The notes beneath the pieces are model-generated. The model did no database searches, was not told where the DNA came from, and worked only from the letters and a program-made list of their open reading frames with translations. This document shows, in pieces, positions 1,046 through 8,412 of a DNA stretch of 8,412 nucleotides. The stretch is from the IMG/VR virus record IMGVR_UViG_2690316148_000008. One strand, given 5' to 3'. Every line of letters begins with the position of its first letter. The stretch's first letter is position 1. Position numbers and translations under genes: made by a program. Source of the DNA: a virus. Taxonomy: Duplodnaviria > Heunggongvirae > Uroviricota > Caudoviricetes.

Positions 1046-1122
1046 TGGCGCGTTGTACTGGATTCGAACCAGTGACCGATTGCTTAGAAGGCAATTGCTC
1101 TGTCCGGCTGAGCTAACAACGC
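1046..1122 (-). tRNA. argO: tRNA-Arg (anticodon UCU), 77 nt, encoded CCA
   Basis: Manual cloverleaf: acceptor GCGTTGT/ACAACGC, D-stem GCTC/GAGC, anticodon stem ATTGC/GCAAT with loop CTTCTAA, T-arm ACTGG-TTCGAAT-CCAGT, discriminator G, CCA. Symbol follows the ileZ-argN-argO arrangement recalled from lambdoid/Stx phages. Confidence 0.85.
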
Positions 1123-1135
1123 ATGATGCAGATAA

Positions 1136-1212
1136 TGGACCGCCATCGGGGACTTGAACCCCGCGCAGCCAGCTTCGAAGGCTGGCGCTCTTTCCTGATG
1201 AGCTAATGGCGG
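1136..1212 (-). tRNA. argN: tRNA-Arg (anticodon UCG), 77 nt, encoded CCA
   Basis: Manual cloverleaf: acceptor CCGCCAT/ATGGCGG (unusual C1-G72), D-stem GCTC/GAGC, anticodon stem CCAGC/GCTGG with loop CTTCGAA, T-arm CGGGG-TTCAAGT-CCCCG. Exact 5' end is uncertain by 1 nt. Confidence 0.75.
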
Positions 1213-1219
1213 TATGTGA

Positions 1220-1295
1220 TGGTGGCCCTTGCTGGATTTGAACCAGCGACCTGGCGATTATGAGTCGCTCGCTCTCACCACTGAGCTAAAGGGCC
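1220..1295 (-). tRNA. ileZ: tRNA-Ile2-like (anticodon CAU, presumably lysidine-modified to read AUA; Met cannot be excluded from sequence alone), 76 nt
   Basis: Manual cloverleaf: acceptor GGCCCTT/AAGGGCC, D-arm GCTC-AGTGGTGA-GAGC, anticodon loop CTCATAA, T-arm GCTGG-TTCAAAT-CCAGC, discriminator A, CCA; overall resembles my recollection of E. coli ileX. Confidence 0.8.
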
Positions 1296-1335: not shown

Positions 1336-2394
1336 TCATCCGTTCTGGCTGACTAAATCCTGTACTTCCCGAACCGTCTGCTCAAAACGTTCAGTCTCCA
1401 GCTCAACGCCAATTGCACGACGCCCGAGCGCCAGTGCCGCTTTCACTGTCGAACCCAACCCCATGAAAAAATCTGCAATCAGGTCACCCGGACGACTGCT
1501 AGCGCTGATTATCTGCTGCAGCATTTCTGCCGGTTTTTCGCACGGATGTTTCCCGGGATAGAACTGCACCGGTTTATGCGTCCACACATCGGTATACGGC
1601 ACCTGCACCGTCACGCCAAAATACCGCCGCAGATGTTTATATTCACTCAGCAGCTCCGCATACTGCCGGTTCAGTGAGGTATACGTATCCACCAGCTGGT
1701 GGTGGAGCTTTTCCAGTTCACCACGCCGATGCTTCTCTTCTGCCACCCGGGCAAACAGCGCCTGTAATTTCAGATAATCGCTTTCATTCGGCAACTGCCA
1801 CTGACCGGCACTGAACCAGTGCGACACCATGTTTTTCTTTCCTGTGGCATCTGCAATCTGTTTTGCCGTTATCCCCAGGGCAGCTCGCGCATCACGAAAG
1901 TAAGAAATCAGCGGGGCCATCACATGCTGTTTCAGTGCACTGCCCTTCGCCGCATACCCGGCATCTTTCGGACGATACGGCCCCTGATAATGTTCCGCGA
2001 ACAGAATGCGCTCTGTGGCGGGGAAATACGCCCGCAGGCTTTCCTTGTTGCATCCGTTCCAGCGTCCGGACGGCTTCGCCCAGATAATATGGTTCAGCAC
2101 ACTGAAGCGTTCACGCATCATGATTTCGATATCAGATGCCAGGCGATGACCACAGAACAGGTAAAGACTTCCGGCAGGTTTCAGCACCCGCCAGAACTGC
2201 GCCAGACACTGGTCCAGCCACTTCAGGTAATCATCGTCGCCCTTCCACTGGTTATCCCAGCCCTCAGGCTTCACTTTAAAGTACGGCGGGTCCGTGACTA
2301 TCAGGTCAACAGAATTTTCGGGTAACGACCGGATAAATTCCAGGCAGTCGGCGTTGATTAACTCACAACTGGATATTTTTACAGTATTAAGCAT
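1336..2394 (-). CDS. Orphan DNA methyltransferase, beta-class N6-adenine/N4-cytosine type (motif IV DPPY near the N-terminus, motif I FxGxG near the C-terminus)
   Basis: 352-aa ORF; VTDPPY early and FFMGLGST late is the motif order of beta-class amino-MTases (N6_N4_Mtase family); no restriction endonuclease partner is visible in the window. Confidence 0.85.
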   Translation of the reverse strand: MLNTVKISSCELINADCLEFIRSLPENSVDLIVTDPPYFKVKPEGWDNQWKGDDDYLKWLDQCLAQFWRVLKPAGSLYLFCGHRLASDIEIMMRERFSVLNHIIWAKPSGRWNGCNKESLRAYFPATERILFAEHYQGPYRPKDAGYAAKGSALKQHVMAPLISYFRDARAALGITAKQIADATGKKNMVSHWFSAGQWQLPNESDYLKLQALFARVAEEKHRRGELEKLHHQLVDTYTSLNRQYAELLSEYKHLRRYFGVTVQVPYTDVWTHKPVQFYPGKHPCEKPAEMLQQIISASSRPGDLIADFFMGLGSTVKAALALGRRAIGVELETERFEQTVREVQDLVSQNG

Positions 2395-2486
2395 GGATCA
2401 TTAAGCCTGTCTCTGATAGGCTCATTCTGCTTTTGCGCAAAGCAGTGGGCCTGAGGTTTGCTTGTGAACCCAACGCATGAGCAGAT

Positions 2487-2517
2487 GGCTGGTGGGTGCC
2501 CCTAACACCCACCAGCC
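2487..2517. other. Perfect 12-bp stem / 7-nt loop hairpin (ggctggtgggtg-cccctaa-cacccaccagcc) in the methyltransferase leader; each arm contains a Chi octamer
   Basis: Inverted repeat read directly; GCTGGTGG at 2488-2495 (plus) and its complement at 2509-2516. Confidence 0.6.
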
Positions 2518-2530
2518 GCCCATTTACCAC

Positions 2531-2558
2531 AAATAAAAAAGCCTTCACTGCGGAAGGC
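2531..2558 (-). terminator. Rho-independent terminator (stem gccttc/gaaggc, loop actgcg, then UUUUUUAUUU on the minus strand)
   Basis: Hairpin 2541-2558 and A-run 2531-2540 on plus; the stop codon of the 65-aa ORF (2545-2547) lies inside the stem. Confidence 0.6.
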
Positions 2559-2742
2559 GTCTGTAACAACCGAACTGATAGTCTGCCAGACCCGCCATAA
2601 CCAGCTGGGTCAGTATTAACTGGCAGCGTTCGCGTGAAAGGTAAGTATTCTGCGCTATCTCCCCGACTGTCGCCGGTTCGGTAACGCTTAATTCATTAAA
2701 CACCACTCTGGCGGTTTCTGTCATATCCTGCTGTTTTAGCAT
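2545..2742 (-). CDS. Small (65 aa) putative helix-turn-helix DNA-binding protein
   Basis: AAGGA Shine-Dalgarno 6 nt upstream of the ATG; HTH-like segment TVGEIAQNTYLSRERCQLILTQL; sits between the late promoter/terminator and the methyltransferase. The terminator overlapping its 3' end keeps the coding call uncertain. Confidence 0.45.
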   Translation of the reverse strand: MLKQQDMTETARVVFNELSVTEPATVGEIAQNTYLSRERCQLILTQLVMAGLADYQFGCYRRLPQ

Positions 2743-2860
2743 GTCTTTTCCTTTTCCGGTTAACGTGACACACCAATAACTCTTGTCGAAAAAGCCAGCA
2801 AGCTGAAAGACAGGTATTCACCGCCACCAGCGCGTTTACTGTACTGACGCGATTTCAGTC

Positions 2861-2886
2861 ATAAAAAACCCGCTCGGCGGCGGGTT
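2861..2886 (-). terminator. Candidate tR'-like rho-independent terminator about 40-65 nt downstream of the pR'-like start
   Basis: Minus strand reads AACCCGC-CGCCGA-GCGGGUU followed by UUUUAU; 7-bp stem read directly. Confidence 0.55.
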
Positions 2887-2918: not shown

Positions 2919-2961
2919 CCCATCGTTATGACGAATTTACCACAGATTCCGGAAAAATCAA
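2919..2961 (-). promoter_or_regulatory. pR'-like Q-dependent late promoter: -35 TTGATT (2956-2961), 16-nt spacer, -10 TAAATT (2934-2939), then AACGATGGG (2927-2919) matching the lambda pR' sigma-dependent pause element as I recall it
   Basis: Hexamers and pause-like element read on the minus strand immediately downstream of the Q stop codon (2967); arrangement parallels lambda pR'. Confidence 0.6.
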
Positions 2962-2966
2962 CCTTG

Positions 2967-3623
2967 TTACCTAGTTACCTTTTTTAACTGCCGCTCAGCC
3001 CATGCTTCTTCAATATCAAACCGGGTCACCAGCGCATCATAAAATTTCTTAACTGTTTTTTCCCATGACGCGCGTGTTATCTGGTTTGTCACCTCGCATA
3101 TAGCATTAAATGCCTCCGTTGATGGTAGTCTTTCATAGCCACGACCACCACAACGCTGGCAGTCTCTGATAACAGGCATACCACGTTTTACCGACTCTTC
3201 ACGATGAATGGCGACACCACGCCCACGGCAATCCTTACAGGCGGTGGAAACCTCACCCTTTCCGCCACACTCCGGACAGGCAACTTTTACCACCTCTCTG
3301 ACTTTTTTCCATTCTTCCCAGTAAGACGGATACACACCTTTCGTACACTTTGCCCATACCGGCGGCTTACCATCCGGATACTGGACCTTGTTTGTAAAAA
3401 CTACGCTTTCAATAAATTTTTCCCCATAGCAACAAGGGCACTGCTTTTTACTCGCTGCGCTGCGGGCATAATCCTCAAAAGCGTACGAAGCCATAATGCG
3501 CATCACTACCGGTTTTATTTCTGCCGGAAGTTTTCTCAACGCCGCCACACGATCGCACCGACTGAGTGCATAATCTGCCAGTAATTCTGTTGCCCGCGCC
3601 CTGTCATTCATACTGATGCCCAT
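2967..3623 (-). CDS. Q: Antitermination protein Q, lambda-Q family, copy 1: carries the true C-terminus; the frame stays open upstream to the N at 3650, so it is 5'-truncated at the junction
   Basis: 218-aa ORF with CPCC...CPECGG...CKDCRGRG...CQRCGGRG zinc-ribbon motifs and a C-terminus (YDALV...VTR) resembling lambda Q from memory; followed by a pR'-like promoter. Confidence 0.75.
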   Translation of the reverse strand: MGISMNDRARATELLADYALSRCDRVAALRKLPAEIKPVVMRIMASYAFEDYARSAASKKQCPCCYGEKFIESVVFTNKVQYPDGKPPVWAKCTKGVYPSYWEEWKKVREVVKVACPECGGKGEVSTACKDCRGRGVAIHREESVKRGMPVIRDCQRCGGRGYERLPSTEAFNAICEVTNQITRASWEKTVKKFYDALVTRFDIEEAWAERQLKKVTR

Positions 3624-4257
3624 TTTCCCCAGGAACGCAGAAAACCCCANAATTTCTTAACTGTTTTTTCCCATGACGCGCGTGTTATCTGGTTTGTCAC
3701 CTCGCATATAGCATTAAATGCCTCCGTTGATGGTAGTCTTTCATAGCCACGACCACCACAACGCTGGCAGTCTCTGATAACAGGCATACCACGTTTTACC
3801 GACTCTTCACGATGAATGGCGACACCACGCCCACGGCAATCCTTACAGGCGGTGGAAACCTCACCCTTTCCGCCACACTCCGGACAGGCAACTTTTACCA
3901 CCTCCCTGACTTTTTTCCATTCTTCCCAGTAAGACGGATACACACCTTTCGTACACTTTGCCCATACCGGCGGCTTACCATCCGGATACTGGATCTTGTT
4001 TGTAAAAACCTCGCTTTCAATAAATTTTTTTCCGTGACAGCAGGGGCACTGTTTTTTGCTCGCCGCGCTACGGGCATAATCTTCAAACGCATACGAAGCC
4101 ATAATACGCATCACTGCCGGTTTTATTTCTGCCGGGAGTTTTCTTAACGCCGCCACGCGATCACACCGACTGAGTGCATATTCTGTCAGCAATTCTGTTG
4201 CCCGCTCTCTGTCATTCATACTAATGCCCATTTTCCCAAGGAACGCAGAAACCCCCA
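3043..4257. repeat. Two diverged direct copies of a ~607-bp Q segment (3043-3649 and 3651-4257) joined at a single N (3650)
   Basis: Manual alignment: the two units are near-identical over roughly the first 300 bp (about 1 difference seen) and clearly more divergent over the rest, with substitutions and 1-nt indels. Confidence 0.85.
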
Positions 4258-4396
4258 TCTCAGCCCGATTCTGTGTCATGCCCTGCGCGGCCATCACATC
4301 AGTGATACTCAGCGCATCTTTCGACGTTGAGGCCGATGCATCAGTCAGGCCGGGGGATTTTGGGGAGTAGTATTTCGGTAAATCTTCCAGTTTCAT
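3608..4396 (-). CDS. Q: Antitermination protein Q, lambda-Q family, copy 2: carries the true N-terminus; homology-supported coding is 3651-4396, and the ORF tail 3608-3649 is a frameshifted read-through across the N at 3650
   Basis: 262-aa ORF; N-terminus MKLEDLPKYYSPKSP...DVMAAQGM resembles lambda Q; same Cys motifs as copy 1; start codon overlaps the rusA stop (ATGA). Confidence 0.75.
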   Translation of the reverse strand: MKLEDLPKYYSPKSPGLTDASASTSKDALSITDVMAAQGMTQNRAEMGVSAFLGKMGISMNDRERATELLTEYALSRCDRVAALRKLPAEIKPAVMRIMASYAFEDYARSAASKKQCPCCHGKKFIESEVFTNKIQYPDGKPPVWAKCTKGVYPSYWEEWKKVREVVKVACPECGGKGEVSTACKDCRGRGVAIHREESVKRGMPVIRDCQRCGGRGYERLPSTEAFNAICEVTNQITRASWEKTVKKXWGFLRSWGKWASV

Positions 4397-4767
4397 TTTT
4401 TGACCTGCTCTTCATGCATTATGGGGTAAATCTTCACCCCCAGACGTCCACCAGATACTGGCTGACCACGAACGATATTGATTTCATCAAACTGCTCATC
4501 GTCCATTAACACTCCCGCATGTGTCAGTGCATCCAGTGGTGCTTTCAGGATATTGTCCAGGTCACGACGGCGCTTATCCGGTGGCTCTGCAATAATCTTT
4601 ATCGCCAGTCTTCCGGACAGGCTTAATTTCAGTCGCTGCTGACGGACAATAAGCGCCACATCCCGGCGATAACGCTCACCGGCTTTTGATACAAAATATG
4701 TGTTGTCACGACGTCGCCAGTAAGTATTCACCGTCGGCGGATAAGGTAAAATAAACTCATGGCGCAT
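4393..4767 (-). CDS. rusA: Crossover junction endodeoxyribonuclease RusA (Holliday junction resolvase)
   Basis: 124-aa ORF with RusA-like pattern LPYPPTVNTYWRRR...RRRDLDN...SGGR; stop overlaps the Q start (ATGA); start overlaps the stop of the upstream 85-aa ORF. Confidence 0.85.
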   Translation of the reverse strand: MRHEFILPYPPTVNTYWRRRDNTYFVSKAGERYRRDVALIVRQQRLKLSLSGRLAIKIIAEPPDKRRRDLDNILKAPLDALTHAGVLMDDEQFDEINIVRGQPVSGGRLGVKIYPIMHEEQVKK

Positions 4768-5076: not shown

Positions 5077-5143
5077 NNNNNNNNNNNNNNNNNNNNNNNN
5101 NNNNNNNNNNNNNNNNNNNNNNNNNNNNNNNNNNNNNNNNNNN
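5077..5143. other. Assembly gap (67 N)
   Basis: Run of n characters; separates the 5' UTR of the 85-aa ORF from a truncated second rusA copy. Confidence 0.95.
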
Positions 5144-5306
5144 TTCCGGACAGGCTTAATTTCAGCCGCTGCTGGCGAACAATAAGCGCCACTGCCCGGC
5201 GATAACGCTCCCCGGCTTTTGATACAAAATATGTGCTGCCACGACGACGCCAGTAAGTGTTCACCGTCGGCGGGTAAGGTAAAACAAATTCTATGCGCTC
5301 GGTCAT
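5144..5306 (-). pseudogene. rusA: 5' fragment (about 54 codons) of a second, diverged rusA copy, truncated by the N gap
   Basis: Encodes MTERIEFVLPYPPTVNTYWRRRGSTYFVSKAGERYRRAVALIVRQQRLKLSLSG; nucleotide sequence clearly similar to 4610-4767 (roughly 90% by eye); start lies 1 nt after the DUF968 stop. Confidence 0.7.
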
Positions 5307-7100: not shown

Positions 7101-7122
7101 CAAAAAACCCGCCGAAGCGGGT
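7101..7122 (-). terminator. Rho-independent terminator of the hok transcript (stem cccgc/gcggg, loop, then UUUUUUGUUGUUUAUUU on the minus strand)
   Basis: Hairpin 7108-7121 and A-run 7102-7107 on plus; about 70-90 nt after the hok stop, matching the usual hok 3' UTR length. Confidence 0.65.
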
Positions 7123-7191
7123 TAAGTGTGGGTGCATTGAGGATGCCTGACCCATCAGAGGTGGCGAGGGATTTCTCCCCCGCCTGGTCTC

Positions 7192-7347
7192 TTACTCCTC
7201 AGGTTCGTAAGCTGTGAAGACAGCGACCTCCGTCTGGCCGGTTCGAATTCGTACCTCGCAGAGGTCTTTCCTCGTTACCAGTGCCGTCACTATGACGGTT
7301 AAACAGATGACGATCAGGGCGATTAACATCGCCTTTTGCTGCTTCAT
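7192..7347 (-). CDS. hokD: Hok/Gef-family membrane toxin (51 aa), HokD/RelF-like; the open frame extends in-frame upstream to an ATG at 7404 (70 aa), which may be a mok-like initiation region
   Basis: MKQQKAMLIALIVICLTVIVTALVTRKDLCEVRIRTGQTEVAVFTAYEPEE matches my recollection of E. coli HokD and the Hok consensus (CLT...TRK.LCE.R); AAGGAG SD 9 nt upstream of the ATG at 7347. Confidence 0.85.
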   Translation of the reverse strand: MKQQKAMLIALIVICLTVIVTALVTRKDLCEVRIRTGQTEVAVFTAYEPEE

Positions 7348-7516
7348 AGCCTGCTTCTCCTTGCCTTTCGGCACGTAAGAGGCTAACCTAGATTTGCCGT
7401 TCATAGATTGAGCCTCAGATTAATGTTAAGCGTCTTGCCGGACGCGTAATGTTAACTGGGGCTTTTCTCTATCTGCCTTTTGGTGTTCATGCCTGAGACA
7501 GATAGCCTCAAGCACC

Positions 7517-7551
7517 CGCTGCAATTCTACTTAACTCTCCTTTTCCCGCAA
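7517..7551 (-). promoter_or_regulatory. Candidate hok promoter (-35 TTGCGG at 7546-7551, 16-nt spacer, -10 TAGAAT at 7524-7529), predicted start near 7517 giving a ~170-nt leader
   Basis: Hexamers read on the minus strand; predicted 5' end coincides with a 12-nt element (7506-7517) complementary to the 3' UTR (7130-7142). Confidence 0.5.
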
Positions 7552-8157: not shown

Positions 8158-8412
8158 TTAACCCGCAGTGCTTTCAACTGATGAGGGGAACAAAATCTTT
8201 TCATCAAACCCTGCATTCATATCATGAACAGCAACACACCAATCCATCGACNNNNNNNNNNNNNNNNNNNTCGACGAACGATTATCAAGAGCCTCCATGA
8301 TTTCATCCATGCGGCGTAGGTCATACAGGTAAATGCTTTTATCGCCAATGGTGTAAAAGCCAATTTTTTTCGGTGATGGATGAGGTGTACTGGCAATAGC
8401 GGACACTACCAT
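8158..8412 (-). CDS. Hypothetical protein (84 codons), start ATG at the window edge (may extend beyond); interrupted by a 19-N gap at 8252-8270
   Basis: Open frame MVVSAIASTPHPSPKKIGFYTIGDKSIYLYDLRRMDEIMEALDNRSS...; stop TAA at 8158-8160 overlaps the SD of the next ORF; the first 31 nt are repeated inverted at the left window edge. Confidence 0.4.
   Translation of the reverse strand: MVVSAIASTPHPSPKKIGFYTIGDKSIYLYDLRRMDEIMEALDNRSSXXXXXXXSMDWCVAVHDMNAGFDEKILFPSSVESTAG
8382..8412. repeat. Right arm of 31-bp terminal inverted repeat (partner 1-31)
   Basis: Exact reverse complement of bases 1-31. Confidence 0.9.

Follow-up and report, generated by a model that had tools for sequence, protein, structure and literature searches.

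A conserved, covarying leader RNA with two mutually exclusive predicted folds precedes M.EcoGII-family methyltransferase genes in phage late operons

M.EcoGI and M.EcoGII are non-specific beta-class N6-adenine methyltransferases from E. coli O104:H4 C227-11 (Murray et al. 2018, PMC5778455). That paper describes M.EcoGII as methylating adenine in any context, on DNA and RNA alike, and as highly active on its own, and it names phage 1720a-02 as the carrier of a very similar enzyme. The literature, including PMC5778455, describes M.EcoGI and M.EcoGII as deleterious once expressed and silent in the lysogen, and reports the same for orthologues in other E. coli strains of the Shiga toxin-producing (STEC) kind. 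As a tool enzyme M.EcoGII is in wide use, and it counts as a model ancestral beta-class methyltransferase; the cause of its silence in the lysogen, and the way in which a phage safely uses such a toxic activity, have so far been guesswork. PMC5778455 deals, in the passages searched, with the protein only and makes no mention there of an upstream winged-helix gene, a leader RNA or a mechanism of lysogen silence; none of the papers searched gives such a mechanism. The subject of this study is an M.EcoGII-type gene in an 8,412-nt stretch of tailed-phage DNA (Caudoviricetes; IMG/VR record IMGVR_UViG_2690316148_000008), which is called the window below and in which all features of the methyltransferase module lie on the minus strand. 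The leader of this gene is a widespread, covarying RNA motif with two mutually exclusive folds, for which no Rfam family, annotation or paper was found, and it probably helps to keep the toxic enzyme off until lytic growth. We lean, with slightly more belief than doubt, towards a late-operon anti-restriction methyltransferase that is gated by Q antitermination together with a leader RNA switch.

One described parallel is com-mom of phage Mu (2012, PMC3299994), which resembles what is proposed for the window in that a late, host-toxic, broadly anti-restriction DNA-modification gene is controlled post-transcriptionally by mRNA structure around its start. Mu carries a gene for the zinc-ribbon protein Com, whereas the window has no Com homologue; its relatives L152, L163 and L176 carry a Com-like open reading frame (ORF). 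The translation-inhibition stem of Mu is unrelated to the multi-helix motif of ~135 nt in the window, the motif precedes the com-like ORF in Com-type loci, and Mom itself is not a methyltransferase. Com-like genes adjoining non-specific methyltransferases have been described in Mu-like prophages. In late control of the lambda type, transcription from the promoter pR' yields a short RNA that terminates at tR' (6S RNA; StxS in the case of Stx phages), and Q acts by antitermination (Sy et al. 2020, PMC7547250). The window shares this plan, with Q, a promoter-like site, an intrinsic terminator about 65 nt downstream and the late genes beyond. In the window a second terminator and a structured leader come after these, and StxS is a different sequence block.

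Type II restriction-modification systems have controller (C) proteins, which resemble the window protein in being small, of the helix-turn-helix (HTH) type and encoded shortly before a methyltransferase gene. Controller proteins feature a five-helix Xre fold, a C-box and an endonuclease, whereas the window has a winged helix, neither C-box nor endonuclease, and a setting in a phage late operon. In the Stx phage phiPA8, the methyltransferase M.EcoPA8orf6770P forms a 1:1 complex with PNB-2, a small winged-HTH protein whose gene lies immediately upstream and is transcribed together with it (Gong, Chakraborty and Koudelka 2023, PMC10810198). PNB-2 is a stoichiometric subunit that sets the substrate and redirects the phiPA8 methyltransferase to 16S rRNA (PMC10810198). 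The window likewise has a prophage methyltransferase with a small winged-HTH gene immediately upstream, but the phiPA8 enzyme is of the MT-A70 type, has a DPPW motif and 208 aa and lies at the phage left end, all of which differ from the window. BLASTP of the window proteins against the phiPA8 methyltransferase and PNB-2 gave E=0.14 and E=0.03 over short segments only, which is no detectable homology, and a covariance-model scan of the phiPA8 locus gave no motif match. Identity of the window pair with the published phiPA8 pair was ruled out, these being different genes. Finally, three-way-junction translational riboswitches (e.g. the purine class) share with the leader a P1-P2-P3 arrangement, conserved joining nucleotides, covarying stems and a predicted alternative pairing that involves a P1 strand and the ribosome-binding region. 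The resemblance is one of architecture only, as there is no sequence or model similarity and the regulated gene is a phage DNA methyltransferase.

A sequence-only reading of the window had pointed to a 65-aa HTH ORF and a 352-aa DPPY...FxGxG methyltransferase that lie between a late promoter and tRNA genes with no restriction partner, and all of these are present on the minus strand. The two genes, the terminator hairpin between them and the parts of the leader RNA are as follows.

1336..2394, minus strand (ORF 2394-1336): M.EcoGII-family beta-class N6-adenine methyltransferase, 352 aa, assigned from Pfam, motifs and identity
2545..2742, minus strand (ORF 2742-2545): gene of the 65-aa winged-helix protein (PHROG_331, function unknown), with a Shine-Dalgarno AAGGA at 2753-2749, 6 nt before the AUG
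2531..2558, minus strand: second terminator hairpin (P0), GCCTTC-CGCAGT-GAAGGC + T6AT3 (TTTTTTATTT after 2558-2541), from a terminator scan and an inverted-repeat search
2392..2527, minus strand: leader RNA motif, 135 model positions (~135 nt), ending at the methyltransferase AUG (covariance model R1, 118.7 bits, E=1.3e-33)
2518..2523, minus strand: segment a (AUGGGC), which pairs with d (P1, 90% of cells paired) or with b
2487..2517, minus strand: P2, whose 12-nt inverted-repeat arms (2487-2498 / 2506-2517) match perfectly around 7 loop nucleotides, from the inverted-repeat search
2457..2485, minus strand: P3, segment b (UCUGCUCAUG, 2485-2476) with segment c (CACAAGCAAA, 2466-2457), from covariation
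2446..2450, minus strand: segment d (GCCCA), the 3' arm of P1, which closes the three-way junction, from the covariation alignments
2427..2445, minus strand: P5, CUGCUUU-GCGCA-AAAGCAG, the TTGCGCAA near-palindrome, from covariation
2402..2424, minus strand: P6, UGAGCCU...AGGCUUA (2424-2418 : 2408-2402), its 5' arm being segment f, from covariation
2396..2406, minus strand: segment e (GCUUAAUGAUC), -12 to -2 before the AUG, which pairs with GGUUCACAAGC (2470-2460) in the closed fold (P4), from RNAalifold and minimum free energy (MFE) folding

The same reading had described the leader as heavily structured, with a 12-bp hairpin at 2487-2517, a near-palindrome around TTGCGCAA and a terminator stem overlapping the stop codon of the small ORF. 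These elements were all found again: the hairpin is P2, the near-palindrome is CTGCTTT-GCGCA-AAAGCAG at 2445-2427 and forms P5, and the stop codon of the 65-aa ORF (2547-2545) lies inside the loop of the second terminator. The leader is more structured than chance would give, with a folding z of -3.9 relative to dinucleotide shuffles, and its helices covary across related loci. The covariance model was built from 40 sequences and gave one full-length match per locus, at 60-136 bits and on the sense strand, with nothing else notable in 0.45 Mb; in 0.9 Mb it gave one match per locus and no others at E<=0.001. Each match ends at an AUG, either the methyltransferase's or that of a small zinc-ribbon ORF located before it. 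In alignment A5, which was fitted to the model, 78.9% of cells are paired against 28-42% in slid controls, double-sided change occurs at 28 of the 40 pairs, and covariation is 0.234 compared with 0.10 in shuffles (0/500). In alignment A2, which was made with MAFFT only and is structure-agnostic, 87% are paired against 42% or less in slid controls. Double-sided changes affect all 12 pairs of P2 in A5 and 11/12 in an independent set of 71 distinct sequences from a pattern scan of IMG/VR, and the covarying pairs of P3 number 6/10 and 7/10 in the same two sets; position 119:143 of P3 appears as C-G, U-A, A-U and U-G in the MAFFT-only alignment. The statistics for P5 and P6 were poor in the register of the window and both were re-registered to the majority, in which 5/7 pairs of P5 covary around a conserved GCGC loop centre; in P6, 3/5 pairs covary and the register stays clade-dependent. 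Covariation supports a three-way junction plus hairpins, with compensatory changes in five helices. A conserved structure with covariation support, placed 5' of a single gene family, is one mark of a cis-regulatory RNA switch, and the leader shows it.

G-U wobble pairs are present in the sense orientation, and the stems vary around fixed junction and loop-centre nucleotides, which points to a functional sense-strand RNA and not to a DNA operator. An operator role for the palindromes was ruled out by the wobbles, the covarying arms and the restriction of model matches to the sense strand. This bears on the controller-protein model, in which the small HTH protein would bind palindromic DNA, either in the leader or upstream of its own gene, and control methyltransferase transcription as C proteins do. 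A small protein with a DNA-binding fold is indeed encoded directly upstream of the methyltransferase, the two genes are tightly linked, and a palindrome lies 33-51 bp before the methyltransferase AUG. However, the arms of this palindrome covary with G-U pairs and its centre is conserved, which is the signature of an RNA hairpin and not of a dimer operator, and the same hairpin occurs in phages that lack the 65-aa protein. The sequence-only reading had likened the gene pair to controller/methylase pairs and had proposed a homology check of the small protein. That check gave no match to Pfam HTH_3 or to solved controller proteins and a winged helix instead. The inverted repeats of at least 8 nt in 2380-2970 are P2 and the terminator only, with none placed as a C-box upstream of the 65-aa gene. 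No restriction endonuclease gene is present in the ORF list of the window or in its annotated relatives (Q, methyltransferase, tRNAs and lysis genes only), and PADLOC on the window returned methyltransferase models and no endonuclease. The controller-protein model is already largely refuted and is very improbable. Dependence of the leader on the small protein also did not hold up, since N15, phiKO2 and numerous IMG/VR phages carry the same RNA before the methyltransferase although the small ORF is missing from them.

Between genera, nucleotide identity is 72-84% in the leader, 54-76% in the small ORF and 60-77% in the methyltransferase, where synonymous sites are saturated; by this comparison the leader is under purifying selection and is better conserved than both flanking genes. 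Rfam 15 over the window gave no match to the leader, a search with the leader alone at E<=10 gave sense-strand matches that were all below half of a family's gathering score, and Rfam over the leaders of 17 diverse loci gave none at threshold. A full-text literature search with the characteristic sequences of the motif returned no paper, and no RNA annotation lies under the motif in RefSeq genomes, N15 or phiKO2. Two leader ORFs, one of 12 codons (AUG 2425-2423, stop overlapping the methyltransferase start) and one of 60 aa (2569-2387), were rejected as genes because the start varies (AUG, GUG, UUG, GGG, AAG, GAG), the lengths of leader indels are not divisible by three, and neither ORF matched any family. 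The leader as a homologue of StxS / tR' of the Sakai Stx phages was likewise ruled out, as Sp5 has neither the methyltransferase module nor the motif.

Two folds are predicted for the leader. In the junction fold, P1 (a:d), P2 and P3 (b:c) are followed by P5 and P6 and the start region is predicted to be free. In the predicted closed fold, a pairs with b (AUGGGC : GCUCAU), d with f (AGGCCCAC : GUGAGCCU) and c with e (GGUCA.AAGC : GCUUA.UGAUC). The closed-fold helices are incompatible with P1, P3 and P6, and in enterobacterial copies the c:e pairing would cover -12 to -2 before the AUG. From the unedited MAFFT alignment, RNAalifold derived the closed fold and not the junction, and both folds were then tested explicitly. 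The predicted single-sequence MFE structure is the closed fold in the window and in Salmonella L087, L114 and L155, and its predicted advantage over the junction fold is 9 kcal/mol in the window, 7 kcal/mol in Salmonella L087 and about 3 kcal/mol in L107 and L114. The a:b pairing is present in 96.9% of cells over 60 distinct sequences from all clades, the d:f pairing in 85.9% of cells with CG/UA exchange, and the c:e pairing in about 75% of cells with two AU-to-GC double changes. In the Plesiomonas copy, an AA-to-GG change in segment c is compensated in both partners, as read from the alignments. No Shine-Dalgarno precedes the methyltransferase AUG (...GGCUUAAUGAUCC-AUG), as the sequence-only reading had stated, and this absence is conserved. 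Five partner-swapping segments beside a conserved AUG without a Shine-Dalgarno have the architecture of a translational RNA switch, and the leader may act as one. The earlier suggestion of regulated, possibly attenuated or translationally controlled, expression finds partial support here: a conserved covarying leader, an alternative fold that would mask the start and the missing Shine-Dalgarno fit post-transcriptional control.

Several points weigh against gating by such a switch. In the N15/phiKO2-type clade (L116, L118) the MFE structure is the junction and the start region is predicted to be open, so masking of the start is no general feature, and the function of the conserved core may be a different one from ribosome occlusion. 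All fold energies are predictions, the registers of P5 and P6 vary by clade, and alignments A5 and A6 were fitted to the model. Part of the conservation of the alternative pairing could be a by-product, because b and d are both complementary to a. The U-tract of P0 is strong in some genera only and is weak or absent in several. Finally, the M.EcoGII clone has no leader and is uninformative on leader function.

The junction core could instead be a ligand aptamer (riboswitch) or a platform for a protein or the ribosome, and not a simple occluder of the start. It could recruit the ribosome to an mRNA without a Shine-Dalgarno, sense S-adenosylmethionine (SAM) or a nucleotide, or serve autoregulation by an RNA-methylating enzyme. 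The junction nucleotides (AAUGGGCG ... AACCAAGGCCCA) are invariant beside freely covarying stems, and the two conserved, mutually exclusive folds also suit such a role, as does the N15-type clade, which keeps the core though its start region is predicted to be open. The activity of M.EcoGII on RNA besides DNA (PMC5778455) would fit autoregulation. However, the leader has no similarity to Rfam riboswitches or other families, and no ligand is suggested by a gene context in which a single, non-metabolic gene family is regulated. We regard an aptamer or platform role as quite unlikely.

The distribution of the motif argues for a specific link between the proposed RNA switch and this enzyme. The module occurs in 254 phage records, mostly Stx2-converting phages, and at least 80% of it is present in 2007/5426 complete E. 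coli genomes; the motif alone is present in 2703/5426 of these genomes at 4372 places, with up to 8 per genome. A pattern scan of IMG/VR, in which only the P1 arms and AGCCTA were fixed, gave at least 120 instances. Among the 120 matches listed, a methyltransferase homologue starts 110-139 nt from the motif start in 119, and the remaining one is a chance match without a covariance-model match. The motif is tied exclusively to the M.EcoGII methyltransferase family. A query with the Plesiomonas-type methyltransferase found the same element of ~135 nt in phages without the small ORF, directly after a strong terminator. In N15 and phiKO2 the motif is flanked exactly by an annotated 'putative late promoter plus terminator' on one side and, on the other, by the adenine methylase gene gp52, which comes first ahead of the lysis cassette. 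In phiKO2 the annotated methylase start coincides with the motif end. In N15 (L300, AF064539) the motif occupies 1570-1700, and the AUG at its end precedes the annotated start of gp52 (1932) by 232 nt; this annotated start is probably mis-annotated or the gene truncated.

A leader without any regulatory role, made of ordinary terminators or RNA-stability elements and conserved as a recombination 'linker' between mosaic modules, would account for the mosaic junctions around the region, where one and the same small ORF is found combined with differing types of Q and variants of the methyltransferase, and for the two hairpins that are terminator-like. It would not account for conservation that persists between genera with saturated synonymous sites, or for the compensatory changes in five helices. 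P2, P3, P5 and P6 are followed by no U-tract, and the motif recurs in unrelated backbones (N15, phiKO2 and Mu-like types), where its distance to the AUG never changes. We give the linker account hardly any credence.

Related loci carry other elements at the same place. A second conserved leader type (GAUGCCUUGAGUACCUGAGACCCAG...GGAGAGGAAGCA...GUAUUCAAGGCUC) lies ~130 nt before more distant M.EcoGII-family genes (L158, L160, L161, L171, L175, L177) and also 5' of the main motif in L152, L156, L163 and L172, with no Rfam match. A third, G+C-rich, conserved type follows a strong terminator ~110 nt before the methyltransferase in L146-L151, loci that resemble the window in having a tRNA gene downstream of the methyltransferase. 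An ORF of ~40 aa with CxxC...CxxC, for which the best Pfam model is Zn_ribbon_Com, occurs in L152 (1358-1483) and, in similar form, in L154, L156, L157, L163, L172, L173 and L176. It lies between the RNA motif and the methyltransferase in these loci except L176, which is without the motif. In the Zn_ribbon_Com test of L152, L163 and L176, L176 scored 34.3 bits and the others were below the cut-off. In L152 a hairpin after the Com-like ORF covers the GGAGG and the UUG/AUG start of the methyltransferase, which is the Mu com-mom arrangement.

The gene pair of the window was already known and annotated, and by identity the enzyme is an orthologue of M.EcoGII. Pfam N6_N4_Mtase (PF01555) spans residues 29-340 (E=7.9e-42). 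As read from the translation, DPPY occupies residues 35-38 (codons 2292-2281) and FMGLG residues 310-314 (codons 1467-1453), so that motif IV (DPPY) comes first, then the target-recognition region and then motif I (FxGxG), which is the beta-class order. The enzyme is identical to M.EcoGII at 324/349 residues (93%); the reference was the sequence printed in the supplement of PMC11551740 and taken as machine-read text, and true identity may be slightly higher. The two enzymes share the DPPY-then-FxGxG order and are both prophage-borne orphans; M.EcoGII has Ser in FxGxG where the window enzyme has Leu (FMGLG), and there is no other important difference. The window enzyme is 95% identical to that of phage 1720a-02, and the DNA of the whole module is 94.7% identical to that phage. 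Because of the 93% identity to M.EcoGII, the window enzyme would be expected to methylate adenine in any sequence context. A weak Xre-type HTH_3 match (E=0.036) lies in the central region of the methyltransferase at 1810-1896 on the minus strand, residues 167-195 (LGITAKQIADATGKKNMVSHWFS).

The 65-aa protein has 334 homologue clusters over Escherichia, Salmonella, Klebsiella, Citrobacter and Buttiauxella, where its NCBI name is often 'TrmB family'. The nonsynonymous rate (dN) of the ORF is 0.08-0.2 where the synonymous rate (dS) is saturated, and one E. coli variant has dN = 0 and dS = 0.33, which indicates a real gene under purifying selection. Pfam and NCBIfam gave no model above threshold, with weak TrmB (0.0026), MarR_2 and DprA_WH below cut-offs. 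The AlphaFold (AF2) model, which has a mean predicted local distance difference test score (pLDDT) of 92, shows H9-16, H26-33, H37-49, E53-56 and E59-62, and these three predicted helices and beta-hairpin wing make up a winged helix. Its Foldseek neighbours are the winged helices of MarR, OhrR and IclR, with a TM score of 0.8 to OhrR and MarR domains, and further best neighbours are the N-terminal winged-helix domains of SAM-dependent O-methyltransferases. The sequence-only reading depended on the small ORF being conserved and linked to the methyltransferase. Besides being under purifying selection, it lies upstream of the methyltransferase in 23/24 species-representative genomes from Escherichia to Plesiomonas, with a gap of 147-194 nt that is mostly ~155, and likewise in nearly all IMG/VR loci. 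The pair is kept even in Plesiomonas, where the proteins are only 41% (small) and 59% (methyltransferase) identical to those of the window. L003 (E. coli EC190329) carries a 94%-identical copy of the 65-aa ORF at 3041-3238, directly after Q and followed by a DUF3927 gene; it is without methyltransferase, tRNAs and motif match, so the small gene can persist alone. Truncated or degenerate remnants of the module are found in L014 and L101. Because the motif occurs without it, the 65-aa protein is not needed for the RNA motif; it is a conserved accessory of the enterobacterial version of the module and could act as a regulator or as a partner of the methyltransferase.

The PNB-2 precedent makes partnership a serious rival to regulation. 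The 65-aa protein would in that case be a partner or specificity subunit, and the holoenzyme would have another target or a restrained activity relative to the 'non-specific' enzyme studied by itself, which is compatible with leader control. The near-obligate synteny at fixed spacing across genera, the phiPA8 MT-A70 enzyme with PNB-2 (PMC10810198) as an analogy, and the Foldseek matches to winged-helix domains that are N-terminal in SAM-dependent methyltransferases argue for partnership, and the 65-aa protein is not basic, as counted from its sequence. Neither protein, however, is similar in sequence to PNB-2 or the phiPA8 methyltransferase, and M.EcoGII is highly active alone (PMC5778455). 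An identical small protein is found with methyltransferases that are only 84-100% identical, so co-variation is loose, and the small ORF also occurs without a methyltransferase (L003) and the methyltransferase widely without the small ORF. We consider a partner subunit unlikely on the whole, though well worth keeping in view.

The gating by Q that forms the other half of the favoured reading concerns the order of genes and transcription signals. The minus-strand gene order in this lambdoid prophage window is hok/sok, DUF968, RusA, Q, the module, three tRNAs and an STnc100-type small RNA (sRNA). The module itself runs from Q through a late-promoter-like site, terminator 1, the 65-aa ORF, terminator 2, a 153-nt spacer and the 352-aa methyltransferase to the three tRNAs. 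The remaining features of this region are the following.

2967..3623, minus strand: Q antiterminator gene, the module-proximal copy (Pfam Antiterm E=2.3e-41, PHROG_127)
3608-4396, minus strand: upstream Q copy, which belongs to the 608-nt tandem duplication
2934..2961, minus strand: putative site resembling a late promoter (pR'), found by eye: TTGATT, 16 nt and TGg-TAAATT with an extended -10
2860..2886, minus strand (hairpin 2886-2867): first intrinsic terminator (tR'-like), AACCCGC-CGCCGA-GCGGGTT + T7, from the terminator scan
1046..1295, minus strand: three tRNA genes, CAT (tRNA-Ile by annotation in RefSeq relatives), Arg-TCG and Arg-TCT, from a tRNA scan and relatives

A consensus promoter scan of the window did not call the pR'-like site at 2934..2961; the site lies directly after Q, which is the place of the annotated 'putative late promoter' in N15 and phiKO2. 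Terminator 1 is placed between Q and the 65-aa ORF. Both predicted intrinsic terminators have a G+C-rich hairpin with a direct U-tract (2886-2867 + T7 and 2558-2541 + T6), and most genera compared have a P0 hairpin, with differing arm sequences, whose loop contains or adjoins the stop codon. The nearest annotated relative is an E. coli O121 chromosome, which is 97.5% identical over 1296-2966 and has the same order, followed by holin and lysis genes. In a Stx2c phage and in phage 1720a-02, the tRNAs are followed by stx. The module is not universal among Stx phages; in Sakai Sp5 no methyltransferase module separates Q from the tRNAs. The block 2861-2966, which holds the promoter-like site and terminator 1, occurs alone at 97-99% identity in E. 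coli genomes without the rest of the module (H46-H49) and is therefore a separate, independently mobile mosaic unit. A decamer, TGTGGTAAAT, is found on the minus strand in the -10 region of the late-promoter-like site (2935-2944) and again at the 5' edge of the leader motif (2522-2531), and other genera carry UGUGAAAAU or UGUGGAAAU in its place; the recurrence may be chance, or the decamer may act as an extended -10 or as a pause-like element. A promoter-like TTGAAG-17-TATTAT at 1333-1305 on the minus strand, between the methyltransferase stop and the first tRNA, fits the tRNA promoter mapped in Sp5 (Sy et al. 2020, PMC7547250).

Other observations concern the rest of the window. A 608-nt tandem duplication within Q has copies that are 100% identical (3043-3342 = 3651-3950), a second RusA copy at 90% (4611-4765 vs 5144-5298) flanks a run of N, and runs of N lie near 5080-5150 and 8260-8280. 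These Q and RusA duplications are probably a scaffolding or assembly artefact of repeated prophage sequence and not biology. Just past the tRNAs, Rfam STnc100 gives a full-length sRNA match at 780-969 on the minus strand (133.6 bits, E=4.6e-30). At 7342-7517 and 7192-7404 on the minus strand, a sok antisense RNA scoring 112 bits and an ORF for a hok-type toxin make up a type I toxin-antitoxin pair, and RefSeq annotates hokD in the O121 relative. A weak isrK-like match at 7102-7183 on the minus strand (31 bits, where the gathering score is 50) adjoins hok/sok and may represent a diverged sRNA that binds Hfq. A 111-aa ORF at 419-754 on the plus strand matches PHROG_4407 end to end, and the equivalent gene in the related prophage L003 is annotated as anti-adapter protein IraM.

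In the proposed mechanism, the module would be the first cistron block of a lambdoid (Stx-phage-type) late operon, and the M.EcoGII-type enzyme, which would be harmful to the host, most likely methylates progeny phage DNA as a broad anti-restriction protection. The first layer of control would be transcriptional. The gene lies behind two predicted intrinsic terminators past the putative late promoter, and from the gene order and the established biology of lambda Q, only Q-modified RNA polymerase should reach it efficiently. The second layer would be translational, with the leader holding read-through transcripts in lysogens untranslated. Co-transcriptional folding would favour a:b, since b emerges right after P2, and c:e and d:f would then form. 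A lytic-phase condition would shift the leader to the junction fold and free the start region. The shift could be triggered by some phage protein, by the 65-aa winged-helix protein, by a change in co-transcriptional folding behind Q-modified polymerase, or by a small ligand. Both the translational gating and its direction are to be read as proposals. The Com-like loci upstream of methyltransferases suggest that translational licensing of this enzyme class is a recurring solution. A bolder version, possible though rather doubtful, is that the leader of ~135 nt is a new class of RNA switch, found in roughly half of E. coli genomes and in phages of the N15, lambda and Mu types, whose junction would sense a lytic-phase signal (a ligand, the winged-helix protein, the methyltransferase or Q-altered folding) to license translation. 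As a corollary of that version, the natural enterobacterial enzyme would be a complex of methyltransferase and winged-helix protein that is unlike isolated M.EcoGII in activity.

The leader provides a concrete, mutable candidate for the control element of M.EcoGII switching, and it is a further candidate for the small group of cis-regulatory RNAs that phages encode. The conserved winged-helix partner gene may alter the behaviour of the enzyme in vivo. In Stx phages the module sits on the Q-dependent late transcript just upstream of stx, and its terminators and leader may bear on toxin expression.

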